Shown here one piece after another: positions 18,001 through 51,861 of a stretch of DNA of 64,000 bases. Origin of the DNA: Escherichia coli 042 (GTDB taxonomy: Bacteria; Pseudomonadota; Gammaproteobacteria; Enterobacterales; Enterobacteriaceae). Within the stretch, counting starts at the first letter, position 1. The number at the start of each line of letters is the position of its first letter. The DNA lies in assembly GCF_000027125.1 (NCBI RefSeq), contig NC_017626.1; one strand, given 5' to 3'. The notes under the pieces were generated by a model. It was not told the DNA's origin. It saw only the letters and a program-made list of their open reading frames with translations, and made no database searches. Made by a program: the position numbers and the translations under genes.

Positions 18001-18077
18001 GGAGCGGTAGTTCAGTCGGTTAGAATACCTGCCTGTCACGCAGGGGGTCGCGGGTTCGAGTCCCGTCCGTTCCGCCA
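18001..18077 (+). tRNA. aspV: tRNA-Asp (GTC), a known genomic-island integration hotspot
   Basis: Identical 77 nt sequence to the rrnH-distal tRNA-Asp; followed by a hairpin and T-run terminator around 18106..18137. Confidence 0.97.
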
Positions 18078-19528: not shown

Positions 19529-20008
19529 TTAGAAAATCCGTTCACTCCACAGACTGTACGCACTGGTTCCGGCGACGATGTGCTCCCAGTTGATGCTCTC
19601 ATAGGTAAATGACACAGACTCTTCCGGCTGCCCTGGGCTGTCGTTAATGGTATGGGGAACGGTAAGGCCGATGTTTGAGATCCGGGCATTAGTCAGTTTC
19701 AGCTTGTAGTACGGCTCATTAATACCAAAACGGTTGGTGCGATAGAAGACAAAATCACAGGTCAGACATTCATTCTCCGAAATGGCCTTGCCCAGAAGGG
19801 GGGAGGATTTGTCCACCGGTTTCGTGATAGTCAGTTCCTGGTGATTGACGTTCTGTGCGCGACTCAGCCCATGGGACAGTGACATCACCATGATCTGATC
19901 CTGATGTGCAATCTGGGCCTTGTTACCGATGGACGGCATTGACGAGCATCCGGATGAAATCAGTCCCTGGAGTTCTCCGTTTAGTGTCAGATAGACGGGA
20001 TTTGCCAT
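19529..20008 (-). CDS. hcp: Type VI secretion tube protein Hcp (TssD), second copy at the distal end of the main T6SS operon
   Basis: The ORF track's 288 aa form is an N-terminal over-extension. An Hcp-like 159 aa protein starts at MANPVYLTLNGELQG with an AGGAGA ribosome-binding site upstream of the ATG at 20008. Confidence 0.8.
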   Translation of the reverse strand: MANPVYLTLNGELQGLISSGCSSMPSIGNKAQIAHQDQIMVMSLSHGLSRAQNVNHQELTITKPVDKSSPLLGKAISENECLTCDFVFYRTNRFGINEPYYKLKLTNARISNIGLTVPHTINDSPGQPEESVSFTYESINWEHIVAGTSAYSLWSERIF

Positions 20009-20025
20009 TGTTATTCTCCTTAACC

Positions 20026-21384
20026 TCAATGAGTCGGATGGACAGGTTCGGTTCTGGTATCCGTTGCCATATCCTGTCCGGTATTTTTCAGCAGTAGCCA
20101 GCGGCTTAACAGCCCGTCCAGCCGTTCGTTGATCTCTTTTTCCAGCGCCTGTGTGTCCTGCTTCCGTGCGCGTGTCTCCTGGTACTGTGTCAGCAGGTAC
20201 TCCAGCGGTGTTTCCTGATTCAGTAACCGTTCGGCCTGCCAGGTCACCGTCTTGATATACGAGAGGGTGAAACCCTGTTTCTCCGTCTCCTTTTTCATCA
20301 TCAGATCCGCAAAGTCCCGCAAATTCTGCCGCGCCTGTTGCCAGCCCTTCATCTGCGGACTGGCTTGCGCCCGGTTTCTCAGCGTGTTGCTCCACATCCT
20401 GCTGGCTTCCTGCTGTTGCAGGCTTTCCGGCCAGAGGGTGTCTGCGGTGCGCATCATCTGCATTCCGGTTTCCAGCGGCTGTAGTGGCGGGGCATCCAGA
20501 AGCTGTTGCAGGTACTGTTCATATTCTTTCAGTACCGGGGAGGCCAACCAGGCGGTGGCGGCTCCCTGTGCGGTATCCCTGACTTGCGTAAGCTGCCGTT
20601 GTATCGGATACGCCTGCCACCACCAGAGTACTGCCGCGATAACGGCAGTACAGGCGGCACCGGCAACAAAACCTTTTACCGTGCTGCCCTGTCTAACGTT
20701 GTCGGCGTTATTTGCCACACCGCGCACCTCCACCCGCATTTCCGGCAGGTCGGGCAGGGGAGGCACGGCTTCCGCTGTGGTGGAAGCCGTGCTTTCCGGC
20801 GCATAGACCAGCGTCCGGACCGTGGTCTGTGCCGCCGTATCAGTACGGTTTCCGGGCTGCGGCTCAAACCGCTTGCGTGTGTTCTGCACAAAATAAAGCA
20901 GGTTTTCCACGCGCGGCTGGCGCTTCAGTTCCACCTGCTGGAGTTTGTCGCAAATAAGCTGTAAAGCCCGTTCCGTGCGGTAGAGCAACGGCAGATCATT
21001 TTCGGAAAAGGACACCTGCTGGCGCAGAATATTCCCGGTGCGGGTATTGAACCAGTCCAGCATCTCAGTCCGCGCCGGGCCACCCTGCGGCCAGAATTTA
21101 TCCCATTCGTGGGTGATCATCGCAGCCAGCAGTTCCGAGCCTTCGCAGAACCCTGCCAGCCCCTGATTACGGGTACGCGCCAGCGTATAGTAGGTGGCGG
21201 TATGCAAATCCACCCCGTTGGCCTTAAAAATCGACAGCGCCAGCGATTCCACCAGTTTCCAGTTCAGCTCCGGCTGTGACGGGTGGTTAGCTTTGTTAAT
21301 TTCTTCGCGGATGGCGCTGAACTCCGGCAGGGCGCGCGGATCGCTGCCGGTAACGATAGTTTGTGTCAGTGCGTAATTGCTCAT
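20026..21384 (-). CDS. T6SS-associated ImpA N-terminal-domain membrane protein (VasL-like)
   Basis: The 499 aa ORF-track form overlaps tssM; the start is placed at the internal Met (MSNYALTQTIVTGSDPRALPEF) preceded by an AAGGGGA ribosome-binding site. ImpA_N-like N-terminus plus one predicted transmembrane helix (AGAACTAVIAAVLWWW). Confidence 0.6.
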   Translation of the reverse strand: MSNYALTQTIVTGSDPRALPEFSAIREEINKANHPSQPELNWKLVESLALSIFKANGVDLHTATYYTLARTRNQGLAGFCEGSELLAAMITHEWDKFWPQGGPARTEMLDWFNTRTGNILRQQVSFSENDLPLLYRTERALQLICDKLQQVELKRQPRVENLLYFVQNTRKRFEPQPGNRTDTAAQTTVRTLVYAPESTASTTAEAVPPLPDLPEMRVEVRGVANNADNVRQGSTVKGFVAGAACTAVIAAVLWWWQAYPIQRQLTQVRDTAQGAATAWLASPVLKEYEQYLQQLLDAPPLQPLETGMQMMRTADTLWPESLQQQEASRMWSNTLRNRAQASPQMKGWQQARQNLRDFADLMMKKETEKQGFTLSYIKTVTWQAERLLNQETPLEYLLTQYQETRARKQDTQALEKEINERLDGLLSRWLLLKNTGQDMATDTRTEPVHPTH

Positions 21385-39818: not shown

Positions 39819-40337
39819 ATGCCAACCCCATGTTACATTTCAATTACAGGTCAGACCCAGGGGAACATCACTGCCGGTGCTTTCACCGCAGATTCTGTCG
39901 GCAATATCTACGTGCAGGGACACGAAGATGAAATGCTGGTGCAGGAGTTTCTGCATAACGTTACTGTTCCAACCGATCCACAGTCTGGTCAACCTTCCGG
40001 GCAGCGCGCGCACAAACCGTTCATTTTCACCGTGGCGCTGAACAAAGCCGTTCCGCTGCTGTACAACGCGCTGGCCTCCGGTGAAATGCTGCCGAAAGTG
40101 GAGCTGCACTGGTGGCGTACTTCAGTTGAAGGCAAGCAGGAGCACTACTTCACCACACGTCTTACTGACGCGACGATTGTGGACATGAACCTGCACATGC
40201 CGCACTGCCAGGACCCTGCACAGCGTGAGTTTACGCAATTGCTCGCAGTATCACTGGCATACCGTAAGGTTGAGTGGGAGCACATCAAATCCGGTACTTC
40301 TGGTGCCGATGACTGGCGTGCACCGCTGGAAGCATAA
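39819..40337 (+). CDS. hcp: Type VI secretion tube protein Hcp (TssD), first gene of the divergent operon
   Basis: 172 aa starting MPTPCYISITGQTQGNITAGAF, recognised as Hcp1-family; AAGGAG ribosome-binding site upstream. Confidence 0.93.
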   Translation: MPTPCYISITGQTQGNITAGAFTADSVGNIYVQGHEDEMLVQEFLHNVTVPTDPQSGQPSGQRAHKPFIFTVALNKAVPLLYNALASGEMLPKVELHWWRTSVEGKQEHYFTTRLTDATIVDMNLHMPHCQDPAQREFTQLLAVSLAYRKVEWEHIKSGTSGADDWRAPLEA

Positions 40338-40557: not shown

Positions 40558-42516
40558 ATGTCCTTAAAAGGTCTGCGCTTTACGCTGGAGATTGACGGCC
40601 AGGAGCCGGACACCTTTGCAGTGGTGCATTTCAGGTTAATCCAGAACCAGTCTTATCCGTTTGTGATGAGTGTGGATGTTGCCAGCGACTCTTTTATGCA
40701 GACGGCGGAGATGCTGCTGGAGAAGAAGGCGACGCTGACCATCTGGCAGGGCGTCATCCCGCTGCGTTATGTCACCGGCGTGGTGGCGGGTTTTGGCATG
40801 CAGGAGAACAATGGCTGGCAGATGCGTTATCACCTGCGTATTGAGCCGCCGTTATGGCGGTGCGGGCTGCGGCAGAACTTCCGTATCTTCCAGCAGCAGG
40901 ATATCCGGACGATATCGGCCACGTTACTGAACGAGAACGGCGTCACGGAGTGGACACCGCTGTTTTATGAGGACCATCCGGCGCGGGAGTTCTGTGTCCA
41001 GTACGGGGAAAGCGACCTGGCGTTTCTGGCGCGGTTGTGGGCGGAGGAGGGAATTTTCTTCTTTGAGCGGTTTGCGGCGGACAGTCCGGAGCAGAAGCTG
41101 ACGCTGTGCGACGATGTGGCGGGGCTGTCACAGGCGGGAGAGCTTCCGTTTAACCCGGACACATCGGCAGGAGCGGAGACAGAGTGTGTCAGTATGTTCC
41201 GTTATGAGGCGTATGTCCGCCCGTCGTCGGTGCAGAGCCAGGATTACACGTTTAAGGTGCCGGACTGGCCGGGGATGTATGAGCAGCAGGGTGAGAACCT
41301 GAACGGACAGCTGGAGCAGTATGAGATATTTGATTATCCGGGAAGGTTCAAGGATGAACAGCACGGCAAGGATTTCACGCTGTACCAGATGGAGAGCCTG
41401 CGCAGTGATGCGGAAAAGGCCACAGGGCAGAGTAATTCACCGAAGCTGTGGCCGGGAACGCGGTTTACGCTGACGGGGCATCCGCAGAAGATGCTGAACC
41501 GTGAATGGCAGGTGGTACAGAGTATTCTGTCAGGGGACCAGCCGCAGGCGCTGCACGGCAGCCAGGGGAGAGGAACCACGCTGGGAAATCAGTTAGAGGT
41601 GATACCGGCGGACCGGACGTGGCGTCCACGGCTGCAAAGCAAACCGAAGGTGGACGGGCCACAGAGCGCCATTGTCACCGGTCCTGCGGGAGAGGAAATC
41701 TTCTGCGACGAACACGGACGTGTGCGAGTGCAGTTTCACTGGGACAGGTATAACCCGGCAACGGAGGCGAGTTCATGCTGGGTGAGGGTGTCGCAGGCGT
41801 GGGCGGGGCCGGGATTTGGTAACCTGGCGATACCGCGCATCGGCCAGGAAGTGATTGTAGACTTCCTGAACGGCGACCCGGACCAGCCGATAATCATGGG
41901 GCGGACGTACCATGAGGACAACCGTTCGCCGGGGAGTCTGCCGGGGACGAAGACGCAGATGACGATACGGTCGAAGACCTATAAAGGAAGCGGCTTTAAT
42001 GAACTGCGGTTCGAGGACGCGACGGACAAGGAAGAAATTTACCTGCACGCACAGAAAAATATGCAAGTCGTTGTGCTGAACAGCAAGGATAAGCGGGTCA
42101 ACTATGACCGGACGGTCAGCATCGGGCATGATGAATCCCTGGTGGTGGCAAATGACCGGAAAGTGACGGTTGAAGGTAAACAGGACCATAAAACCACCAA
42201 AGACCATGTCAGCCTGACAGAGGGCAATCAGGGGCTGGAGGTGAAAGGCGATCTGGCACAGAAAATAAGCGGCGCGCTGGGTATCAGCGTACAGGGCGAT
42301 ATTGTTTTACAGAGCGACAGCAAAATCAGTCTGCGGGTGGGCGGTTCATTTGTGGTGATCCATTCCGGCGGCGTGGATATTAAGGGCGCGAAAATCAATC
42401 TTAACGGCGGAGGCAGTCCGGGAGACGTGATCCTGCCGATGCGCCCGGTGATCCTGAAAGCCGCAGCCGGAAGCGGGACAATGTTTGTGGCGCACTGCCC
42501 GAAGGAGGATAAGTGA
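40558..42516 (+). CDS. vgrG: T6SS spike protein VgrG (TssI)
   Basis: 652 aa; gp27-like N-terminus, gp5-like OB fold and repeat region; no obvious C-terminal effector extension. Confidence 0.92.
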   Translation: MSLKGLRFTLEIDGQEPDTFAVVHFRLIQNQSYPFVMSVDVASDSFMQTAEMLLEKKATLTIWQGVIPLRYVTGVVAGFGMQENNGWQMRYHLRIEPPLWRCGLRQNFRIFQQQDIRTISATLLNENGVTEWTPLFYEDHPAREFCVQYGESDLAFLARLWAEEGIFFFERFAADSPEQKLTLCDDVAGLSQAGELPFNPDTSAGAETECVSMFRYEAYVRPSSVQSQDYTFKVPDWPGMYEQQGENLNGQLEQYEIFDYPGRFKDEQHGKDFTLYQMESLRSDAEKATGQSNSPKLWPGTRFTLTGHPQKMLNREWQVVQSILSGDQPQALHGSQGRGTTLGNQLEVIPADRTWRPRLQSKPKVDGPQSAIVTGPAGEEIFCDEHGRVRVQFHWDRYNPATEASSCWVRVSQAWAGPGFGNLAIPRIGQEVIVDFLNGDPDQPIIMGRTYHEDNRSPGSLPGTKTQMTIRSKTYKGSGFNELRFEDATDKEEIYLHAQKNMQVVVLNSKDKRVNYDRTVSIGHDESLVVANDRKVTVEGKQDHKTTKDHVSLTEGNQGLEVKGDLAQKISGALGISVQGDIVLQSDSKISLRVGGSFVVIHSGGVDIKGAKINLNGGGSPGDVILPMRPVILKAAAGSGTMFVAHCPKEDK

Positions 42517-43355
42517 TGGAAACGGCACCCGTGCAGTACGCCATTGTGGATGGCGCTGTGGAGGAAGGATTGCTGGATTTTCTGAACGAGGTGAATCCCC
42601 CGCACTGTTGTCTGTATGCAGAACCCATACAACTGGATCTGGTCGCGCTAGCCCCCTATCTCGTGGAAGTCGTTCCGGAGGTTGAAGCATGGCTGAGTGT
42701 TAAGGCGTCGCCATGGGGAATATATCTGACTTCTGAGTCATCCATGCGTGAGCTACAGCAACACTTCAGACGTTATCTGTGGGTTAGGATCCCCGAACAG
42801 GAGAAACCTGTTCTCATGCGATTTTATGATCCCCGGAATATATGGGTATTAGTGGAAGTTCTGACCCCCCGCCAGCGTCTTTCTTTTATCAGTCCCGTCA
42901 GACAGCTAAGTACCCGTTATGGTGAAGAATGTCGTGAGGATAATTTTTCTTCCGTCCGTCCCGCAGAAACTATGAATATAAGGGCAGAACGGCCATCACA
43001 ACTGACGCTGAGTTACAGACAATATAGCCAACTGGAACGAAAGGCACGGGATAATTATCTTGATATATTATCTGCATTTATCGAAGAAAATGTAGATAAA
43101 AACGGATGGGATGATTCATCAAAAGCTGAATCATCCCGAATTCTGGCAGAAGATTATTTCTCTTTTTGCCAGTCATTAAATATAGCAGATGATCGTTCCG
43201 TCAGAACAATGACGCTTATATTACTGAAAAAAAATATAATCGATCTCAGATATATTCCGGATGACTGGTATGAACAACTCAGCAATCAGTCATACCCGGG
43301 ACATATTCGGGTACATGAACTTGCACAACAGGAACTGGGATTTATCCCACAATAA
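42513..43355 (+). CDS. DUF4123-family T6SS effector adaptor/chaperone (Tap/Tec-like)
   Basis: 280 aa; N-terminal QYAIVDGAV motif characteristic of DUF4123; start overlaps the vgrG stop by 4 bp. Confidence 0.7.
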   Translation: MMETAPVQYAIVDGAVEEGLLDFLNEVNPPHCCLYAEPIQLDLVALAPYLVEVVPEVEAWLSVKASPWGIYLTSESSMRELQQHFRRYLWVRIPEQEKPVLMRFYDPRNIWVLVEVLTPRQRLSFISPVRQLSTRYGEECREDNFSSVRPAETMNIRAERPSQLTLSYRQYSQLERKARDNYLDILSAFIEENVDKNGWDDSSKAESSRILAEDYFSFCQSLNIADDRSVRTMTLILLKKNIIDLRYIPDDWYEQLSNQSYPGHIRVHELAQQELGFIPQ

Positions 43356-43376
43356 AAAGACAAACGGATAGATTAT

Positions 43377-44948
43377 ATGACATCTCCATCTTCGACAGCC
43401 GGAAAGCCCTGTGTGGAATGCGGCATTCCTGATCCATGTATTTTTGATGTTATTAGTGATTTTCCAGAGGCCGGCGAGAAACATTTCTGGTCAAAAGAAG
43501 GAGTGGCGCGTTTTAAGCTACTGGATGATGGTTCCGGATGTGATGGTATAATTACCATTACCTACCAGTGCGATAAAAGTGGAACACATGAGGCATGGTT
43601 AGAGGAAGAATCAGAAAATAATCATAAGATACTGCAACCTTTCGGAATACCTAATAAGGTCACTTTGGATGATAACTTGTCTGAAGGTGAAATAATTGCT
43701 ATGGGTACATTTCGAGTACCATGGGATTATTTGGGGGCAATATCCTCTCCACTTAAGAATCATTATGAACCTGCCCATTATTCAGTCAGAATTGACAGTT
43801 GTTACGAATGTGGCAATTATGTTGAAATTGATGTTTATCCTACAGTGGAAATTAGGTTTACTACAGGGTTCAGCTATGAGATTTCGTCATCAAAACAGAC
43901 GAGAACAGTAAAAGAGCGGCGTGACGAAAGAATAAAAGCCAGGGACGCAATGGAGAACACCAAGCCCAGGGATAAAAATAAACTCCGTAGCGGCTGGACA
44001 AATACCACTGCTGAGTTTGAGTGGATAAACAAGACTTCCCTGACTGTCGATTTTGGCGTAAAAATAGCTAATGTTGAACACACAAGTGAATATGAAAAAG
44101 AGATAAAAAAACTTCGACAAACAAAGCAACTGGAACAGATAGGAAGAATTGACTCTCTGGTCAAGAATGTCAATAAATATTTTGCGCCAGATCCTGACAA
44201 TAATAATGGTACGCGCAAATATGCATTGTTCAGTGCAAAAATAGAACCCGTTAAACTGGGTATATCGTATGCCTATCAATATACCGATATCCAGGATGGC
44301 CCCTGTCATTTTTATGGTTTGTTTGGTGCCCCATTTTTTGAAGCGTCGTTCAGATTCGATATTATTTCATTTATATGTGCATATTGTAAAGTCGAGTCAT
44401 TGGTCAACAGATGTCGTGAATATCTCCGTAAAAACGGAGCCAGTGTTGAATGCTATATCGAGATTTCAGCGGAGATTAATCTTGATCTTGGCGCAGTATA
44501 CGCTGAAAAGGATAAAAAATGGGAGTTTAATGTAAAGGAAAGTAACATCAAGCTCGGTTTAAAAGGTGTGGTGAGTGCGACGTTTGAGGCGAATGTTTTT
44601 GTTGTACAACTGACCGCCGAAGCGACTGCCTCTATAGAAGCGAAAGCTGGATTTGGATTTGATTCACATGATGACGGACTGGACCTAGCATTATTTCATG
44701 ACGGCATTAAAGGGAAGTTTGAATTTAAGATTGATGTGTCTCATGGTGAAGTTGATGAAAAAGGAAAGGGGAAGGAAAAGAGCGAAAAACCTGAGAAGAA
44801 AGATACCGTTGAGTGGCAGTTATGTGATCCTATGGAGGTAAAGGATTCACCATTACGGGTTAATTTATACGGTAAAGAACGCACTGTGGAGAAAAAAGTA
44901 ACACCGCCGAAGCCAGTGACAACGTGGACGATAGGTATGGATTATTAA
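43377..44948 (+). CDS. Hypothetical protein, candidate T6SS cargo effector of unknown activity
   Basis: 523 aa, no signal peptide, Cys-rich N-terminal third, Lys/Glu-rich C-terminal tail; directly downstream of vgrG and the DUF4123 adaptor. No recognisable catalytic motif seen by eye. Confidence 0.55.
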   Translation: MTSPSSTAGKPCVECGIPDPCIFDVISDFPEAGEKHFWSKEGVARFKLLDDGSGCDGIITITYQCDKSGTHEAWLEEESENNHKILQPFGIPNKVTLDDNLSEGEIIAMGTFRVPWDYLGAISSPLKNHYEPAHYSVRIDSCYECGNYVEIDVYPTVEIRFTTGFSYEISSSKQTRTVKERRDERIKARDAMENTKPRDKNKLRSGWTNTTAEFEWINKTSLTVDFGVKIANVEHTSEYEKEIKKLRQTKQLEQIGRIDSLVKNVNKYFAPDPDNNNGTRKYALFSAKIEPVKLGISYAYQYTDIQDGPCHFYGLFGAPFFEASFRFDIISFICAYCKVESLVNRCREYLRKNGASVECYIEISAEINLDLGAVYAEKDKKWEFNVKESNIKLGLKGVVSATFEANVFVVQLTAEATASIEAKAGFGFDSHDDGLDLALFHDGIKGKFEFKIDVSHGEVDEKGKGKEKSEKPEKKDTVEWQLCDPMEVKDSPLRVNLYGKERTVEKKVTPPKPVTTWTIGMDY

Positions 44949-45014
44949 GTGATATTACAGAAATTAAAAGTGAACAGTATAATGAGTATTTTCCCCTTTT
45001 GAGAGAGAATAATT

Positions 45015-46025
45015 ATGAAGGCAAAACATTTAATATCGGTTATTTTACTGTCAGGAGTTGTTATGGGAACTGGATTTTGCTCTAACGATAACCAGCAAAA
45101 AATTCGCAGTAAGTTTAATATTGAAGAGTCATATTGTGCCATTAAGACTAATGGCGTCCTCGGGTTCAGTAACCGAAGAAGTGCCTGGCGGGCAAATGGT
45201 GATTCAACCGGGGCCATATCCAGCACCAATGCCATGATGCTGATGGCGAATGGAGAAAATGAAATCAGTCTGGAGATTGGGGCATTAGGATGGTTTTCTG
45301 ACAAGCCTGCCAGTATGGAAGAACGGGGGCGTTTTTTTCCAAAAGCAGGATGCAGCCTGGATTTGGTTCGTTTTATTAAACAGGAGGAAACGCTGCTTTC
45401 TTCAATAAAAGTGACCATCAACCAGCAGGGCATACCTGAAGCCCGGCCAGACAGCGTGCATCCCGTTATCCGGAAAGAGATTTTGGCTGAGCAGGCGGAG
45501 CCAGGATTTATTGATCCAGATTATTTTGATGAAACCTATTTCCCGAAAGGGATGAAGGTGTATCAGTTCACTCAAAAAGTTACCGTGACAGGGCTTCCTG
45601 AATGGGCCTGGACGCGGGCAACCCCCTATACCGGAAGCGACGAGCAGTTACGGAAGTTAAAAGCCGCCTATACCGAAATGGCAAGCATCATCAGTAGCCG
45701 GGACAGGGCACGTCTGAAAGCTTATAACAAAGAGGCGCTGAAGGCATGGTCAGCCACAACCGGTGACTCTGAGGATGACATATTACTCTCACTCTTCTCA
45801 AAAGATAATGTGGAGGGAGGGAAAGCCAGAATGCAGCCCATCAGGTGGGACGATTATGCCGTCCGGGTTATGAATGGTGGACGTATGGTGCAGCTATATA
45901 ATAAATCGAAACCAATATATTCCCCACTGACTTACCGTTTTACAGATGAAAGTGGTGAAGAGCGTATGGGGTATTACGCTCCGGTATTTTCGCTGATTGA
46001 TGGTCAGTTTATCCCTGTTACTTGA
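45015..46025 (+). CDS. Hypothetical exported protein, candidate cognate immunity protein
   Basis: 336 aa with N-terminal signal peptide (MKAKHLISVILLSGVVMGTGFC); immediately downstream of the candidate effector. Confidence 0.5.
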   Translation: MKAKHLISVILLSGVVMGTGFCSNDNQQKIRSKFNIEESYCAIKTNGVLGFSNRRSAWRANGDSTGAISSTNAMMLMANGENEISLEIGALGWFSDKPASMEERGRFFPKAGCSLDLVRFIKQEETLLSSIKVTINQQGIPEARPDSVHPVIRKEILAEQAEPGFIDPDYFDETYFPKGMKVYQFTQKVTVTGLPEWAWTRATPYTGSDEQLRKLKAAYTEMASIISSRDRARLKAYNKEALKAWSATTGDSEDDILLSLFSKDNVEGGKARMQPIRWDDYAVRVMNGGRMVQLYNKSKPIYSPLTYRFTDESGEERMGYYAPVFSLIDGQFIPVT

Positions 46026-46337
46026 TTAACCTGTTGGGCTACAAATCAGGATGTCCGGTAAGGTGATTATTACTGAGTTAAGCACCTTACCGTTTTTTAA
46101 ATTTTTTGTCGCTGATATTCCAGACAGGAAAACAATATGCCTTTAGCTGCCAGATTAAACGACAAAGGTACCGGCACAGGGAAAGATCACGTAACGCTGC
46201 TTTTTTGTACTAAATAATTCGCATTTTATGTTTAAAATTTGAGATATTCCTCATTACCTGAGGCTGTTTTTTATTACTTATACATGATCAAATACTCCTT
46301 ACATAATTAAGGGGAACAAAATGGAACTTAAAAATTG

Positions 46338-47262
46338 ATGGAACATATTTCTGTTATTCCCGATTACAGACAAGCCTGGAAAGTGGAACATAAATTGTCG
46401 GATATTCTACTGTTGACTATTTGTGCCGTTATTTCGGGTGCAGAAGGTTGGGAAGATATAGAGGATTTTGGGGAAACACATCTCGATTTTTTAAAACAAT
46501 ACGGTGATTTTGAAAATGGTATTCCTGTTCACGATACCATCGCCAGAGTTGTATCCTGTATCAGTCCTGCAAAATTTCACGAGTGCTTTATTAACTGGAT
46601 GCGAGATTGCCATACTTCAGATGATAAAGACGTCATCGCAATTGATGGAAAAACGCTCCGGCACTCTTATGACAAGAGTCGCCGCAGGGGAGCGATTCAT
46701 GTCATTAGTGCGTTCTCAACAATGCACAGCCTGGTCATCGGACAGATCAAGACGGATGAGAAATCCAATGAGATTACAGCTATCCCAGAACTTCTTAACA
46801 TGCTGGATATTAAAGGAAAAATCATCACAACTGATGCGATGGGTTGCCAGAAAGATATTGCAGAGAAGATACAAAAACAGGGCGGTGATTATTTATTCGC
46901 TGTAAAAGGAAATCAGGGGCGGCTTAATAAAGCCTTTGAGGAAAAATTCCCACTGAAAGAATTAAATAATCCAGAGCATGACAGTTACGCAATGAGTGAA
47001 AAGAGTCACGGCAGAGAAGAAATCCGTCTTCATATTGTTTGCGATGTCCCTGATGAACTTATTGATTTCACGTTTGAATGGAAAGGACTGAAGAAATTAT
47101 GCGTGGCAGTCTCCTTTCGGTCCATAATAGCAGAACAAAAGAAAGAGCCAGAAATGACGGTCAGATATTATATCAGTTCTGCTGATTTAACCGCAGAGAA
47201 GTTCGCCACAGCAATCCGAAACCACTGGCACGTGGAGAATAAGCTGCACTGGCGTCTGGACG
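46338..47262 (+). CDS. ISAs1-family transposase (H-repeat-associated protein), exon 1 of intron-interrupted gene
   Basis: Matches the intact copy at 49523..50659 up to ...[14 protein letters not shown] 1 nt shorter A-run than in copy 2 removes the MELKKL leader, so the start shifts to the ATG at 46338. The ORF-track tail [10 protein letters not shown] is intron-encoded read-through. Confidence 0.75.
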
Positions 47263-49153
47263 GTGTGCCGCAGGAACACAAGATAGCTGCATAAGGATAC
47301 GCAGTTAGCTTTTGTATAAGCTCATAAAGAGATGGTGGAAGGCCCACCGGGATCGGCTGTCGGAAGCAGATTCCAAACCACTTCATGCTGCTGTGGTAAA
47401 GAGCCATGGTAGTGAGCGATGAAGTAAAGCGTGAGTGAAAACTCAGCAGGTAAGATACTCATGAGACGAGTGAACCCGAACCCATGTTGACGCGTCGTAA
47501 ACCAGAGACTGACATCAAAACCGAAGGGGCGTCCAGCCTTCGGGATAAGTCTGCGAGTGAATTCCGAATGCTGCGCAGACGGTGTCCGGCGTAAAGTGGG
47601 CGTGACGGAGTATCAGGCTCTTCCTGGGAACTGCGGGAACCTGTCGTTGTGATGATAAGGGAGAAATGCAAGTCACTGAATTGGCGAGCATGAAAGTACC
47701 GATGCACAGCACAGGGACGGAGCCGTTCGTAGTAGTGATGAAGCTTCTGTAATGGAGGTGGAGCGAAGGGGCGGCATCAGACAGTCTTTGGACAGTGTTC
47801 AACTGAACATGTTCAGGAGGAGACAATGACAAAGACAAAAGCGTTTAACATTGATAAGTCACTGGTGGTCAGCGCGTACAGGCGAGTGAAGACCAGTGCA
47901 GGCGCGGCGGGAATTGATAAGCAATCGCTGGCGGACTTTGATAAACGGTTAGTTGATAATCTGTACAAAATCTGGAACCGACTTTCTTCAGGAAGTTATT
48001 TCCCACCGGCAGTGAAAGCGGTGGCAATTCCGAAGAAATTGGGTGGAGAGAGAATTCTGGGTATCCCGACAGTCAGCGATCGTATCGCGCAGACGGTGGT
48101 AAAACTGGCCTTTGAGCCACAGGTTGAGCCACATTTTCTGGCAGACTCTTACGGCTACAGACCGAATAAATCGGCACTGGATGCTATAGGGGTAACGCGT
48201 AAGCGTTGCTGGTATTACGACTGGGTACTGGAATTTGACATCAAAGGGCTGTTCGATAACATCCCGCACGAACTGATAATGAAAGCCGTGGACAAACACA
48301 ATCCGGCCCGGTGGGTAAAATTGTATATACAGCGGTGGCTGACAGCGCCGATGGTGATGTCAGACGGAGAAGTCAGAGCACGAACAATGGGAACGCCGCA
48401 GGGAGGTGTCATAAGTCCGTTGCTGGCAAACCTGTTCATGCATTATGTGTTTGATAAATGGCTGGCAAAATATTATCCGAAAGTGCCGTGGTATCGATAT
48501 GCTGATGATGGCATTTTGCATTGTCACAGCGAAGCAGAAGCGACTGAAATGCGAGAAGTATTACGCAAAAGATTTAGCGAATGCGGACTGGAAATGCATC
48601 CGGAGAAAACGCGAGTTATCTACTGCAAAGATGGAAGCCGGAAGGGTGATTATGAACATACCATGTTCGACTTTCTGGGGTACACATTCAGGCGACGCGT
48701 AGTAAAGAACGTTAAGCGAAACAGTCTGTTTGTAAGTTTTACCCCCGCAGCGAGCAAATCAGCGCTAAAGGCAATGCGTCGGGAAATCAAAGCGACAGGG
48801 ATAAGGAAAAGAGTGGATTTAAGCATTGAGCAGATAGCGAAATGGATAAATCCAAAACTGAATGGCTGGATAAATTATTACGGGCGATATACCTGTTCGG
48901 AATTATACAGCGTGTTCAGATATATCAATAAAGCACTGGTGAGGTGGGGGCGTAAGAAATATAAAATGCTCAGCCGATACAAGACAAGAGCCTCAAAATT
49001 TCTGGAAGAAATGGCGAAGCGAAGTCCACAGTTGTTTGCCCACTGGCGTCTGAAGATGAGAGGCGGACTTGTTTGATGGGAGCGGTATGAGCCGAGAGGT
49101 TCACGTACCGTTCTGCGAGAGGCTGCGGGGGAGGTTCCTGCGGCCTACTCACC
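47263..49153 (+). mobile_element. Group II intron (about 1.9 kb) inserted in the transposase gene
   Basis: Insert begins GTGTG (GUGYG consensus), contains the RT/maturase ORF in the position of domain IV, has a domain V-like hairpin (GAGCGGTATGAGCCGAGAGGTTCACGTACCGTTC, about 49080..49114) and ends just before the exon 2 sequence seen in the intact copy. Boundaries are good to about 1 nt. Confidence 0.8.
47826..49076 (+). CDS. Group II intron-encoded reverse transcriptase/maturase
   Basis: 416 aa; RT motifs including YADD ([11 protein letters not shown]) and a C-terminal maturase (domain X) region. Confidence 0.88.
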
Positions 49154-49347
49154 TGGTAATGAATGAAGACGACTGCAAAATAAGAAGAGGAAATGCAGCA
49201 GAATTATTTTCAGGGATACGGCACATCGCTATTAATATTTTGACGAATGATAAGGTATTCAAGGCAGGGTTAAGACGTAAGATGCGAAAAGCAGCCATGG
49301 ACAGAAACTATCTGGCGTCAGTCCTTGCGGGGTGCGGGCTTTCGTAA
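49154..49347 (+). CDS. ISAs1-family transposase, exon 2 (C-terminal 64 codons)
   Basis: Encodes [63 protein letters not shown], nearly identical to the C-terminus of the intact copy; joins exon 1 in frame. Confidence 0.75.
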
Positions 49348-49378: not shown

Positions 49379-50669
49379 CAGGGAAAGATCATCAGAAGTA
49401 CACTTTTTGTACTAAACAATTCGCATTTTATGTTTAAAAATTGAGATATTCCTCATTACCTGAAGCTGTTTTTTATTGCTTATACATGATCAAATACTCC
49501 TTACATAATTAAGGAGAACAAAATGGAACTTAAAAAATTGATGGAGCATATTTCTATTATCCCCGATTACAGACAAGCCTGGAAAGTGGAACATAAATTA
49601 TCGGATATTCTACTGTTGACTATTTGTGCCGTTATTTCTGGTGCAGAAGGTTGGGAAGATATAGAGGATTTTGGGGAAACACATCTCGATTTTTTGAAGC
49701 AATATGGTGATTTTGATAATGGTATTCCTGTTCACGATACCATTGCCAGAGTTGTATCCTGTATCAGTCCTGCAAAATTTCACGAGTGCTTTATTAACTG
49801 GATGCGTGACTGCCATTCTTCAGATGATAAAGACGTCATTGCAATTGATGGAAAAACGCTCCGACACTCTTATGACAAGAGTCGCCGCAGGGGAGCGATT
49901 CATGTCATTAGTGCGTTCTCAACAATGCACAGCCTGGTCATCGGACAGATCAGGACGGATGAGAAATCTAATGAGATTACAGCTATCCCTGAACTTATTA
50001 ACATGCTGGATATTAAAGGAAAAATCATCACAACTGATGCGATGGGTTGCCAGAAAGATATTGCAGAGAAGATACAAAAACAGGGAGGTGATTATTTATT
50101 CGCTGTAAAAGGAAACCAGGGGCGGCTAAATAAAGCCTTCGAGGAAAAATTTCTGCTGAAAGAATTAAATAATCCAGAGCATGACAGTTACGCAATTAGT
50201 GAAAAGAGTCACGGCAGAGAAGAAATCCGTCTTCACATTGTTTGCGATGTCCCTGATGAACTTATTGATTTCACGTTTGAATGGAAAGGTCTGAAGAAAT
50301 TATGCGTGGCAGTCTCCTTTCGGTCAATAATAGCAGAACAAAAGAAAGAGCCCCAAATGACGGTCAGATATTATATCAGTTCTGCTGATTTAACCGCAGA
50401 GAAGTTCGCCACAGCAATCCGAAACCACTGGCACGTGGAGAATAAGCTGCACTGGCGTCTGGACGTGGTAATGAATGAAGACGACTGCAAAATAAGAAGA
50501 GGAAACGCAGCAGAATTATTTTCAGGGATACGGCACATTGCTATTAATATTTTGACGAATGATAAGGTATTCAAGGCAGGGTTAAGACGTAAGATGCGAA
50601 AAGCAGCCATGGACAGAAACTACCTGGCGTCAGTCCTTGCGGGGAGCGGGCTTTCGTAATCTTGCCCTG
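49379..50669 (+). mobile_element. ISAs1-family (H-repeat) insertion sequence, copy 2 (intact), in tandem 21 bp after copy 1
   Basis: Inverted repeats CAGGGAAAGATCATC and TTCGTAATCTTGCCCTG at the ends; 1291 bp. Confidence 0.8.
49523..50659 (+). CDS. ISAs1-family transposase (H-repeat-associated protein), intact
   Basis: 378 aa, [50 protein letters not shown]...; DDE-type H-repeat transposase. Confidence 0.88.
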
Positions 50670-50778: not shown

Positions 50779-51282
50779 ATGGTAGATATTGTCGAGGCCG
50801 ATAAAACGGATATTTATTTCATTCAGGAGAGTGTTTATGGCAAAATCGGGTTGCCAGCTTTTGGTAATACAATAGGACCATCCGCACAGCAAGTTGTTAA
50901 AAAGGTATTCGCTGTCGTTAAAGAACGAGATAAGACACATGCAAAACAGAGATTATTGTTGGAATATAATGGTAACAAACTCTGGATGAATGCTATTGAT
51001 GGCAGTGAAGCTATCCTACCAACAGAATTTTCTAAGCGATACGAACTTTCATTATTTAATACTACTAATTTTGGAGAAGATCCTTTTCCTGATGTTAATT
51101 TATATAATAATATGAAATCAAGTTTTTTTGTAAGGTTTGGTGGAACATCCCATCCCGAGGCTTGGGCTATTTATAATGCAAGTACGAAAGAGGTTAAATA
51201 TATAGAAACTGCAAGAGAAATTGATAAAATATTCAGTGATTTTAACTTGAGTGGTACATTGCCAATTCACATTGGTCGATGA
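50779..51282 (+). CDS. Hypothetical protein (no signal peptide), AT-rich
   Basis: 167 aa ORF just right of the IS pair; no recognisable motif; may correspond to the small ORFs that sit between yafT and yafF in E. coli K-12 (unverified). Confidence 0.4.
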   Translation: MVDIVEADKTDIYFIQESVYGKIGLPAFGNTIGPSAQQVVKKVFAVVKERDKTHAKQRLLLEYNGNKLWMNAIDGSEAILPTEFSKRYELSLFNTTNFGEDPFPDVNLYNNMKSSFFVRFGGTSHPEAWAIYNASTKEVKYIETAREIDKIFSDFNLSGTLPIHIGR

Positions 51283-51348
51283 TTTTTTAAATTGTGTGAT
51301 TAAATAATTGAACATTAATGATGATTTATAGCATTATTATTCTATAAC

Positions 51349-51861
51349 ATGAATAAACGGATTGAATGTGTTATGTTAAAAATAAGTTTATACGTAATAA
51401 TATTGTTATTTTCCTTTCAGATTAGTGCAGCCATTACTAGCAAGGAAAGTGAGGTTGTTTCACCATTATTAATGGATGTTAATTCTTCACTAACAATGGA
51501 AAATATTTCTGAATTATCCACATCATCGGAACCATCGCAACAGGGGGTATTTCCTGTAATATGTACTCGACTTCATCCTGGCTCCGTAATGAAACGCCAG
51601 TTATTAACCGGCTGGGGGCCTGTTTTTATAATTGGTGATGATCCTTTTTCTCTGCGCTGGATGAGTGAACATCTGGAGATCCTTAAATCGCTAAATGCCC
51701 TTGGTTTGGTTGTTAATGTTGAATCAGTAGAACGAATGGAGGTATTACAGCAGCGGGCTGATGGGTTATTGTTATTGCCAGTTATCTGCGATAATTTCGT
51801 GCAAACTCTGCAATTAAATGCTTATCCGGTATTAATCACAGAGATGGAAATATCACAATGA
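51349..51861 (+). CDS. Hypothetical exported/membrane protein
   Basis: 170 aa with N-terminal hydrophobic signal (MLKISLYVIILLFSFQISAA); AT-rich; identity not resolved. Confidence 0.4.
   Translation: MNKRIECVMLKISLYVIILLFSFQISAAITSKESEVVSPLLMDVNSSLTMENISELSTSSEPSQQGVFPVICTRLHPGSVMKRQLLTGWGPVFIIGDDPFSLRWMSEHLEILKSLNALGLVVNVESVERMEVLQQRADGLLLLPVICDNFVQTLQLNAYPVLITEMEISQ

Follow-up and report, generated by a model that had tools for sequence, protein, structure and literature searches.

A vgrG- and DUF4123-linked candidate effector-immunity cassette in an Escherichia coli T6SS-2 island

DUF4123 adaptors bridge the C-terminus of VgrG and an effector (Colautti et al. 2024; PMC11582642), and the Tle lipases, which act in the periplasm, have S-H-D triads and periplasmic or lipoprotein immunity proteins (PMC9860674). 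For the UPEC strain UMN026, Casiano González et al. [quoted passage not shown] Their proposal was based on domain searches, Bastion6, SignalP, AF2 docking, PCR/RT-PCR surveys and wild-type competitions, and did not include mutants, toxicity tests or a mechanism. In the docked models, the adaptor touches the N-terminus of the effector and the partner touches its C-terminus.

We have examined the genes downstream of vgrG in a 64 kb stretch of DNA (the window, at its full length), which is the E. coli T6SS-2 island at tRNA-Asp. [quoted passage not shown] The initial annotation had offered the pair as a new effector-immunity candidate; with the same three genes already proposed, that reading has been public since 2024 and the idea is not new.

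Organization of the cassette

All members of the gene order that had been read from the DNA (vgrG, DUF4123 gene, 523 aa gene, 336 aa gene) were recovered as open reading frames on the plus strand (Table 1).

Table 1. Features of the cassette and its flanks (window positions, or residues of the protein named)
Feature	Position	Strand	Basis or remark
hcp (tssD), first gene of the hcp-vgrG-cargo operon	39819..40337	+	TIGR03344, E=3.4e-62
vgrG (tssI), 652 aa spike	40558..42516	+	TIGR03361, E=2.5e-179
DUF4123 (Tap/TEC) adaptor, 280 aa, ECUMN_0231	42513..43355	+	PF13503, E=2.7e-25, residues 9-122
Candidate effector, 523 aa, ECUMN_0232	43377..44948	+	
Effector N-terminus, Cys-containing, conserved	residues 1-75		nearly invariant between E. 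coli alleles
Effector Ig-like β domains			
Effector KERRDE helix, conserved	residues 176-193		
Effector C-terminal β-rich region, long amphipathic strands	residues 285-456		
Effector K/E-rich linker	residues 457-480		
σ70-like promoter match, ATTACA-18 nt-TATAAT	44954..44983	+	consensus scan, 10/12 positions; pattern match only
Exported partner, 336 aa, ECUMN_0233, candidate immunity protein	45015..46025	+	
Partner N-terminal β-sandwich	residues 28-191		
Partner C-terminal NTF2-like domain	residues 209-334		
Terminator-like hairpin (GGTAAGGTG / CACCTTACC, 17 nt loop), then T-rich run	46057..46107	+	read from sequence
PAAR 5' remnant, 12 codons, MPLAARLNDKGT	46137..46172	+	36/36 nt identical to MSB2_1A PAAR gene

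We observed that vgrG is cassette-specific from about codon 502 (window ~42063) to its end, that it ends in a conserved tail, ...ILKAAAGSGTMFVAHCPKEDK, and that identity with the Cpe1-type vgrG ends at window 42063. VgrGs of 651-656 aa also precede the related cassettes of Dickeya, Photobacterium, Celerinatantimonas and Halodesulfovibrio; the C-terminal tail is conserved in Dickeya and Photobacterium and, in Morganella, whose VgrG is longer (748 aa), it occurs as an internal motif. Because related cassettes carry VgrGs of this length with the conserved tail, the RefSeq flag on vgrG of strain 118UI (a pseudogene, 'missing C-terminus') looks spurious. The adaptor gene, which begins at GTG 42513 or at ATG 42516 (the RefSeq choice), overlaps the vgrG stop codon, and its product has a weak match, under the curated cutoff, to NCBIfam Tla1, the Tle1 chaperone (E=4.5e-10). 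Computation of GC content upheld the impression that the cargo is more AT-rich than the T6SS core (40-47% vs 56% GC): the values were 56.4% for the core, 57.5% for vgrG, 45.1% for the DUF4123 gene, 40.4% for the effector gene (GC3 35%) and 46.6% for the partner gene.

A σ70-like match lies in the 66 bp gap between the effector and partner genes and is possibly an independent promoter for the immunity gene, which would fit the report that ECUMN_0233 is expressed in all isolates, even in those lacking expression of the upstream genes (PMC11114119). Beyond the partner gene, a terminator-like hairpin, omitted by our consensus scanner because its loop exceeds 8 nt, starts 31 nt past the stop codon. 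PAAR homology then stops at 46172, and from ~46177 the sequence is again ISAs1-related; at this junction, the PAAR gene of the cassette is truncated in this strain by an ISAs1-associated deletion.

The candidate effector and its exported partner

The 523 aa protein had been described as lacking a signal peptide and recognizable catalytic motifs, and we found the same: it has no N-terminal hydrophobic segment, its best 19-residue Kyte-Doolittle window (1.19) is internal, and a regex search found neither GxSxG nor HxKxxxxD. Its N-terminal third is indeed Cys-rich (7/13 Cys within the first 145 residues), and the Lys/Glu-rich tail corresponds to residues 457-480, immediately ahead of the C-terminal ~45 residues. 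Neither the effector nor its partner matched Pfam, NCBIfam, PADLOC, PHROG or PDB sequences. A confident match of the 523 aa protein to a structural or housekeeping family, which the initial annotation had named as evidence against its reading, was looked for by profile and structure and none was found; the effector is a member of a small family without known fold or activity. The predicted model, which is of moderate confidence, is β-rich, with amphipathic strands of ~20 residues that, as modelled, resemble those of outer-membrane barrels. Across the superfamily, three residues (Asp328, His441 and Ser491) are near-invariant, and Ser491 lies outside any GxSxG elbow.

The 336 aa partner has the signal peptide that had been ascribed to it, in a long form that starts MKAKHLISVILLSGVVMGTGFC and in which Cys22 gives a possible lipobox. 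RefSeq begins the protein at Met17 (window 45063; 320 aa), behind a good AGGAG Shine-Dalgarno sequence, and this shorter form would lose the signal peptide in E. coli. As homologs across the family retain the N-terminal signal peptide, the long form is preferred on comparative grounds.

Conservation, divergence and exchange of the cassette

The order of the cassette is conserved at eight loci in seven other genera, one of them (Yersinia) carrying it in degraded form, and a second E. coli allele has it too. The arrangement in Dickeya, Photobacterium, Morganella, Celerinatantimonas and Halodesulfovibrio is hcp-vgrG-DUF4123-effector-partner(s), usually followed by PAAR; no PAAR was seen in the Photobacterium or Celerinatantimonas cassette loci. 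VgrG, adaptor, effector and partner diverge in parallel, and a signal peptide or lipobox is present in partner homologs wherever the N-terminus was called. Partners occur in tandem, with 2 in Dickeya, Morganella and Photobacterium and at least 7 in Celerinatantimonas, and Photorhabdus has 5 effector-partner pairs in tandem. Partner sequences fall into 193 clusters, vs 37 for the effector.

Identities between the two E. coli alleles are 100% for Hcp, 96.9% for VgrG, 94.3% for the adaptor, 76.3% for the effector and 84.4% for the partner, so that the effector and partner genes are the most divergent; within the effector, the divergence lies beyond the first 75 residues. In other strains, the characterised DUF2169-Cpe1-Cpi1 cassette takes the place of this one; the hcp-vgrG backbone is shared and the breakpoint falls within vgrG. 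Strain MSB2_1A keeps PAAR-vgrG2-DUF2169 downstream of the cassette. The 3.7 kb segment is present in 339/5426 complete E. coli genomes (174 complete genomes have this allele at >=99% identity), and this frequency, together with conservation of the cassette in distant genera, means that the pattern is not chance. These in silico observations of gene content, conserved synteny, export signal, co-divergence and cassette exchange strongly support the earlier proposal of a VgrG-loaded, DUF4123-dependent effector with an exported immunity protein and a periplasmic or envelope target, as do the behaviour of the partner and the comparison of alleles.

Proposed function, alternatives and known systems

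The explanation that we favour, with a probability of roughly 0.55, is an adaptor-loaded toxin that acts from the periplasm on membrane or lipid, paired with an exported immunity protein. That the genes form a T6SS cargo cassette is highly likely, and an antibacterial effector-immunity pair is very likely; an envelope or periplasmic target is probable, and its identity as membrane or lipid is tentative, at slightly under even odds. For loading, delivery, toxicity, target and neutralisation, we infer the following course. In the attacker cytoplasm, the variable C-terminal lobe of the adaptor would bind the conserved N-terminal ~75 residues of the effector while its DUF4123 lobe binds the conserved tail of VgrG; so bridged, the toxin would ride on the spike. 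Sheath contraction would put it into the periplasm of a Gram-negative neighbour, where its C-terminal β-rich domain would attack the envelope, the likeliest target being membrane lipid. It might do so by hydrolysis, through Asp328/His441/Ser491 on a scaffold other than the α/β-hydrolase, or by insertion of amphipathic hairpins into the membrane. Sister cells would be shielded by the Sec-exported partner, possibly lipid-anchored in E. coli, binding the C-terminal region of the toxin. One published observation counts against this explanation: wild-type UMN026 also killed the Gram-positive E. faecalis (PMC11114119), an effect that a toxin acting in the periplasm would not account for.

Tae/Tge cell-wall effectors typically have exported, non-membrane-integral immunity proteins. 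Such immunity is common to cell-wall effectors and lipases (Tli: PMC9860674), and the effector could be a periplasmic peptidoglycan enzyme, from a new family of amidases, glycosidases or peptidases, whose active site is blocked by a soluble or lipid-anchored partner. A hydrolase site could be made up of the near-invariant Asp/His/Ser together with Arg181 and Arg347, and the NTF2-like domain of the partner bears a weak likeness to those of Csd6 and Pgp2, two cell-wall enzymes. Yet no Pfam, NCBIfam, PDB-sequence or fold match linked the effector to an amidase, NlpC/P60, lysozyme, transglycosylase or peptidase, and its β-meander with long amphipathic strands differs from known peptidoglycan hydrolases; we regard this explanation as unlikely. 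Similarly improbable is a toxin without enzymatic activity that would bind to an envelope machine or structural protein and jam it, with the immunity protein as decoy or cap; β-strand augmentation onto BamA, TamA, LptD or Lol-type proteins is one possibility. The barrel likeness is generic and of high RMSD, BteO is α-helical and unrelated, and catalysis would account better than an interface for the strict conservation of exactly one residue each of Asp, His and Ser.

A further explanation concerns the state of the locus. With PAAR down to 12 codons and no other PAAR homolog in the window, delivery may be impaired unless PAAR is encoded elsewhere in the genome, and the cassette could be a non-deliverable relic from which the ISAs1-associated deletion took PAAR and the second vgrG module still retained in MSB2_1A. 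Only the immunity gene would then matter, as a defence against kin still firing the toxin, in keeping with the promoter-like site directly 5' of it and with expression of ECUMN_0233 where the upstream genes are silent (PMC11114119). We consider this rather unlikely: the T6SS core, hcp, adaptor, effector and partner are annotated as intact in an identical strain, only vgrG being flagged; its presence at >=99% identity in 174 complete genomes indicates that the allele has not decayed; wild-type UMN026 kills a strain without these genes (PMC11114119); and a PAAR protein may lie beyond the window. That ECUMN_0232 is mainly an anti-host, eukaryote-directed T6SS-2 virulence effector, its exported neighbour not being an immunity protein, is very improbable. 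E. coli T6SS-2 is associated with virulence phenotypes, an excess of the three genes among UTI isolates has been reported, and Photorhabdus and Xenorhabdus, which are insect pathogens, carry an expanded set of family members, but gene presence was not linked to UTI symptoms (PMC11114119), and tandem arrays of exported partners, their co-divergence with the effector, and occurrence in plant-associated and free-living marine bacteria are hallmarks of antibacterial pairs.

The explanation of a membrane- or lipid-directed toxin can be set against described systems. Comparison of the effector with TonB-dependent receptors, porins, FapF, TamB, LptD and MTP/vitellogenin gave RMSDs of 5-15 Å at 3-12% identity; the effector differs from outer-membrane barrels in lacking a signal peptide and a conserved C-terminal β-signal, so the likeness to barrels and lipid-handling β-sheets is architectural only, with no evidence for homology. 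VasX, Tse4, Ssp6, Tme, Tse5-CT and TseVF share its presumed target, the prey membrane from the periplasm, but they are helical or have hydrophobic helices, whereas the effector is mostly β and has no hydrophobic helix; kinship with TseVF, a ~1,200 aa LysM and eight-helix toxin, was rejected. Tle1-4/Tli systems resemble this one in their exported immunity, in the near-invariant Asp, His and Ser, and in that Tla1 is the nearest named relative of the adaptor. They differ in that the effector is β-rich, without GxSxG, an α/β-hydrolase fold, DUF2235, DUF3274 or a lipase Pfam; it is not a Tle by motif, fold or Pfam match, and may possibly work like one. DUF2169-Cpe1-Cpi1, by RefSeq annotation, is alternative cargo at the same hcp-vgrG position, and a neighbouring cassette in MSB2_1A, with a different adaptor (DUF2169), a cysteine-protease effector, a 96 aa immunity protein and different C-terminal ~150 residues of VgrG. 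The VgrG-DUF4123 adaptor cargo systems VasW-VasX and Tap-1-TseL of V. cholerae and Tap6 and Tap14 of P. aeruginosa are described by Colautti et al. (2024; PMC11582642) alongside five DUF4123-associated effector classes (Rhs, Tle, α/β-hydrolase, MIX and MATE), outside which the 523 aa protein falls; like this locus, they combine vgrG, a DUF4123 gene, an effector without PAAR domain or signal peptide, and an immunity gene, with an adaptor of conserved DUF4123 N-lobe and variable C-terminal part and a cassette-specific VgrG tail.

The cargo cassette and its setting in the T6SS island

The open reading frames following hcp lie exactly where the initial annotation had placed them, in the order vgrG, DUF4123 adaptor gene, gene for a 523-aa protein and gene for a 336-aa protein, and the last 2, which are co-directional, are separated by a gap of 66 bp. 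The candidate effector gene, which encodes the 523-aa protein, is located immediately 3' of vgrG and the adaptor gene, inside a T6SS locus, and a full tssA-M cluster adjoins the cassette. The tssB to tssM core, on the minus strand, has a computed GC content of 56.4%, versus 45.1% for the adaptor, 40.4% for the 523-aa protein and 46.6% for the 336-aa protein; because of these values, the initial impression that the cargo is more AT-rich than the T6SS core (40.4-46.6% vs 56.4%) was correct. We put the probability that this is a T6SS cargo cassette at roughly 0.9, and we regard an effector-immunity relation between the 2 cargo proteins as very probable.

Coordinates, strand and supporting matches of features in and around the cassette (window positions)
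Feature	Position	Strand	Match or remark
tRNA-Asp gene	18001-18077		island begins just past its end
hcp	39819-40337	+	TIGRFAM match, E=3e-62
vgrG, 652 aa	40558-42516	+	TIGR03361, E=2.5e-179
DUF4123 adaptor gene	42513-43355	+	PF13503, E=2.7e-25
523-aa ORF, candidate effector	43377-44948	+	
σ70-like promoter match	44954-44983		in the 66-bp gap upstream of the partner gene
336-aa ORF, candidate immunity partner	45015-46025	+	
Hairpin and T-run	46057-46107		3' of the partner gene
ISAs1-family transposase gene, split by a group II intron	46335-49347		intron bears a reverse transcriptase/maturase
Intron RNA domains	47334-47451 and 49078-49153		Rfam RF01999, 105 bits; RF00029, 58 bits
ltrA	47826-49076		within the group II intron
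ISEc1, intact	49523-50659		after the intron-split ISAs1

Many E. coli chromosomes match the cassette segment with 100% identity, and it is present in 339 of 5426 complete E. coli genomes (~6%); identity is ≥99% in 174 of these and 80-90% in 145, a group that includes a second allele of the cassette. The annotation of an identical strain describes a complete T6SS-2-type cluster, bounded by tRNA-Asp and yafV; RefSeq labels both cargo proteins 'hypothetical protein'. Collinearity with the RefSeq-annotated strain 118UI places another hcp, together with a gene for a VasL-domain protein, at the far end of the island (~19529-21384), and the 18-20 kb stretch of the window is clearly AT-rich (38-43% GC). 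By the same collinearity, the yafV edge of the island carries 2 small genes flanked by IS copies (50779-51861; GC 34%), which encode a 167-aa hypothetical protein and a product annotated 'integrating conjugative element protein', and this gene pair is present in the Cpe1-type strain too.

In strain MSB2_1A, which carries the second allele, the partner gene is followed by a PAAR gene, then by another vgrG and a gene of the DUF2169 family, with which a further cargo module begins that resembles DUF2169-Cpe1-Cpi1 of strain DLL557. DNA alignment showed that only the first 36 nt (12 codons) of this PAAR gene persist in the window, at 46137-46172. Homology to MSB2_1A ends past 46172, and ISAs1 sequence, from 46177 onward, is found in place of the rest of PAAR, the second vgrG and the DUF2169 gene. 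We detected no other PAAR homolog in the 64-kb window, where tblastn matches were at chance level only.

Relation to ECUMN_0231-0233, cassette exchange and the exported partner

[quoted passage not shown] (PeerJ 2024, PMC11114119). The 18-residue signal peptide printed for ECUMN_0233, MKAKHLISVILLSGVVMG, matches the first residues of the 336-aa ORF without a difference; residues L101, A225, D226, D227, Y261 and P262 of ECUMN_0231 are all found at their stated positions in the window's adaptor, as are S6, T7, A8, C12, S39 and K40 of ECUMN_0232 in the 523-aa ORF. By sequence, then, the 12 of 12 quoted residues and the signal peptide identify the window triad as ECUMN_0231-0233. The PeerJ proposal was based on domain searches, Bastion6, SignalP-6, AF2 docking and PCR and RT-PCR surveys, and its competition assays used wild-type UMN026 only; SignalP-6 gave ECUMN_0233 a lipoprotein signal (SPII, 0.77) with cleavage at 21/22, and the genes were commonest in phylogroups B2, D and F (PMC11114119). 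Literature searches by RefSeq accession and locus tag returned this paper alone as naming the genes and no toxicity or rescue experiment for effector or partner, and the reviews and vgrG-island literature within reach do not mention the effector family. The effector-immunity reading of ECUMN_0232/0233 is thus supported by sequence comparison and remains a proposal.

Comparison of the 2 E. coli alleles (window vs MSB2_1A) showed identities of 100% for Hcp, 96.9% for VgrG, 94.3% for the adaptor, 76.3% for the effector and 84.4% for the partner, so that effector and partner are the most divergent genes. Residues 1-75 of the effector are nearly invariant between alleles sharing the adaptor and the remainder diverges, as would be expected if a module for loading at the N-terminus were fused to a toxin that diversifies. 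In other strains the same hcp-vgrG backbone is occupied by DUF2169-Cpe1-Cpi1. The homology breakpoint relative to the Cpe1-type vgrG lies inside the gene, at window position 42063 (codon ~502), and therefore the exchangeable unit takes in the VgrG C-terminal region (last ~150 residues), in agreement with the finding that the C-terminus of VgrG is where DUF4123 adaptors attach effectors (Colautti et al. 2024, PMC11582642). A conserved motif in the VgrG C-terminal tail recurs in Dickeya, Photobacterium and Morganella. There is indirect support, from the published AF2 docking, the VgrG tail and the invariant effector N-terminus, for an adaptor that would bridge the effector and the VgrG C-terminus. 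RefSeq flags vgrG in strain 118UI as 'pseudogene, missing C-terminus'. We considered and rejected a truncated vgrG, given VgrGs of 651-656 aa in 4 other genera, the shared tail motif and the intact annotation in other strains; the flag is likely an annotation problem.

The cassette architecture recurs in Dickeya, Photobacterium, Morganella, Halodesulfovibrio and Celerinatantimonas as hcp, vgrG, DUF4123, effector and from 1 to at least 7 genes of ~300-340 aa, with VgrGs of 651-656 aa (748 aa in Morganella) and a PAAR gene next in Dickeya, Morganella and Halodesulfovibrio. The downstream genes encode homologs of the 336-aa protein (E 1e-96 to 1e-7). Tandem partner paralogs occur in Dickeya, Morganella and Photobacterium, and at least 7 tandem partner genes in Celerinatantimonas (locus L013, 8744-15740); Photorhabdus thracensis CP011104 (L004, 1-12513) has 5 effector-partner pairs in tandem, and in Halodesulfovibrio (L012, 8550-15536) partner-PAAR units are repeated. 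The Yersinia copy is degraded, with vgrG split and the partner genes in fragments. Divergence runs in step in all 4 components: VgrG, the adaptor, the effector and the partner. At the level of sequence and gene order, these comparative features are the recognised marks of T6SS cargo effectors paired with a cognate immunity protein that works outside the cytoplasm.

The partner appears to be exported, as initially suggested: wherever an N-terminus was called, its homologs have an SPI-type or lipobox-type signal peptide. RefSeq starts the window's partner at Met17 (45063 vs 45015; 320 aa), which drops the family-conserved signal peptide and is likely an annotation problem. The partner family comprises 193 clusters, compared with 37 for the effector family, and several partner paralogs are often present on one contig. 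The promoter match and the hairpin on either side of the partner gene would allow its separate expression.

Sequence family and predicted structure of the effector

Inspection of the 523-aa protein bore out the features first read from it: there is no hydrophobic N-terminus and hence no signal peptide, pattern searches found neither GxSxG nor HxKxxxxD, the N-terminal third is Cys-rich (7 of 13 cysteines within the first 145 residues), and a Lys/Glu-rich stretch is present at residues 457-480. No Pfam domain was found in 33 of 33 family members scanned, so the effector is without a PAAR, VgrG or Hcp fusion. Neither effector nor partner matched Pfam (as single sequences and with all members of both alignments), NCBIfam, PADLOC, PHROGs or PDB sequences (phmmer and profiles), and profile searches matched no named family for either protein. 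The effector family consists of 37 clusters at 90% identity, in Enterobacterales only and all unnamed. A profile search of 1.84 billion protein representatives gave only 80 matches, likewise unnamed, and searching a third time for homologs, using the broad alignment A3, added no members. Distant members occur in Morganella, Providencia, Photorhabdus, Xenorhabdus, Yersinia, Photobacterium, Salinivibrio, Enterovibrio, Celerinatantimonas and Halodesulfovibrio (Desulfobacterota). Residues ~24-97 of the family profile (P0232) match 9 times within one metagenomic protein of 1507 aa, which suggests that the first β-domain of the effector is an Ig-like module able to repeat.

In alignments extending down to 15% identity, Cys 15, 21, 65 and 142, Arg181, Pro319 and Arg347 are kept. 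Asp328, His441 and Ser491 are each kept in 41 of 42 aligned sequences, each within a recognisable local motif, and suggest a candidate hydrolase triad; Ser491 lies outside any GxSxG elbow.

The AF2 model of the effector, built with 33 homologs, is of moderate confidence (pLDDT 66, pTM 0.59). Its N-terminus, which bears the conserved Cys motif, is poorly resolved; small β-sandwich units follow, and then a conserved basic/acidic helix, TVKERRDERIKARDAM. The C-terminal half is made up mostly of strands of 16-23 residues, with 2 helices interposed, and family members differ in how long their C-terminal tail is and in its sequence. The long strands have a dyad hydrophobic/polar pattern that is kept across the family (β-moment z=5.0 vs shuffles, residues 285-456), and we read them as one large sheet, curved and amphipathic, of a kind that could insert into a membrane or bind lipid. 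There are 5 such strands, and the structural matches are barrels; the dyad pattern occurs in soluble sheets as well, and the model is of moderate confidence. Foldseek searches of AFDB50 with the model matched, at probability 1.0, uncharacterised proteins of 550-1090 aa from Bacteroidota and some Proteobacteria, some of them annotated as OmpA-family or FN3-containing; A0A246G941, A0AAW6G6F7, A0A2H1E7B0, A0A4P7WY22 and A0A553DDP3 are among these.

Possible modes of action and comparison with known toxins

We propose that the effector would be loaded onto VgrG via the DUF4123 adaptor and would act in the prey periplasm as an antibacterial toxin that harms the envelope, and that the exported partner would neutralise it by binding its C-terminal region. 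An envelope target is probable. The likeliest target would be membrane lipid, attacked by hydrolysis at the Asp/His/Ser site or by insertion of amphipathic hairpins, but we hold a membrane or lipid target only tentatively, at somewhat below even odds. It is rather unlikely, though worth stating, that ECUMN_0232 is the first of a new class of T6SS toxin with a β-sheet, outer-membrane-barrel-like scaffold, either lipid hydrolase or β-type pore former. The hydrolase form would, by analogy with barrel enzymes such as OMPLA and PagL, constitute a sixth, non-α/β-hydrolase Tle-type family with an Asp-His-Ser site; in the pore form, amphipathic hairpins of ~20 residues would insert, which would make it the first T6SS effector to form pores of the β-type. 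The effector fold may be far more widely spread than its sequence family, and a new class so defined would reach larger uncharacterised proteins in Bacteroidota and other phyla.

Other explanations are less likely. A new peptidoglycan hydrolase would also suit a periplasmic site of action and an exported partner; the effector has no recognisable catalytic domain or fold of the Tae, Tge, NlpC/P60, lysozyme-like or M23 peptidoglycan hydrolases, and the conserved Asp, His and Ser could belong to the active site of such an enzyme. Alternatively, the effector may bind some envelope machine without acting as an enzyme, for which BteO is a precedent; the near-invariant Asp/His/Ser trio is easier to reconcile with catalysis. 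The cassette might also be a relic whose delivery has been lost in this strain: because PAAR is cut and the window holds no other PAAR homolog, delivery of the toxin in this lineage is questioned, and beside this stand the adjoining tssA-M cluster and cargo genes that are identical in many chromosomes. Finally, the effector could be directed against the host. The same genes were proposed by Nielsen et al. as markers of urinary-tract isolates, and a candidate immunity partner of the kind found across genera is encoded next to it.

The cassette is a well-supported, ordinary VgrG/Tap cargo effector-immunity pair, previously proposed in print, with a toxin domain that is uncharacterised and, as modelled, structurally unusual. 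Interest rests with the mechanism of the toxin rather than with its existence, and would be much higher if a β-scaffold lipase or β-pore proved true. T6SS-2 is the E. coli system with the least understood antibacterial arsenal, and a function for ECUMN_0232 would cover a toxin family spanning Enterobacterales, Vibrionales and beyond; the possible gain is a biochemically new way of attacking the envelope and, in the exported NTF2-containing partner, a new immunity family.

Two described pairs were considered as relatives and rejected. TseVF/TsiVF of Vibrio fluvialis is similarly periplasmic, lipid-binding and dependent on the VgrG C-terminus, but TseVF is a LysM plus α-helical toxin of ~1,200 aa. 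BteO/BtiO of Bacteroides, considered on account of the Bacteroidota and OmpA Foldseek matches, is helical and carries a transmembrane segment at its N-terminus, and BteO serves as a conceptual precedent only, for the non-enzymatic binder. Genuine outer-membrane proteins have a Sec signal and, for assembly by BAM, a conserved C-terminal aromatic β-signal, and the effector has neither. It differs also from the α-helical, colicin-like pore formers VasX, Tse4, Ssp6 and Tme, a class marked by helical hairpins of hydrophobic or amphipathic character or by predicted transmembrane helices, in that its maximum 19-residue hydropathy is 1.19 and its model is strand-dominated. Copies of the immunity gene in tandem are frequent at Tle loci. 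Tle1-4 are defined by GxSxG and an α/β-hydrolase fold and Tle5 by a dual HxKxxxxD; the effector, which had no lipase, DUF2235 or PLD match in Pfam or NCBIfam, has neither motif by pattern search, and its predicted structure is β-rich, unlike the α/β-hydrolase of Tle1-4.
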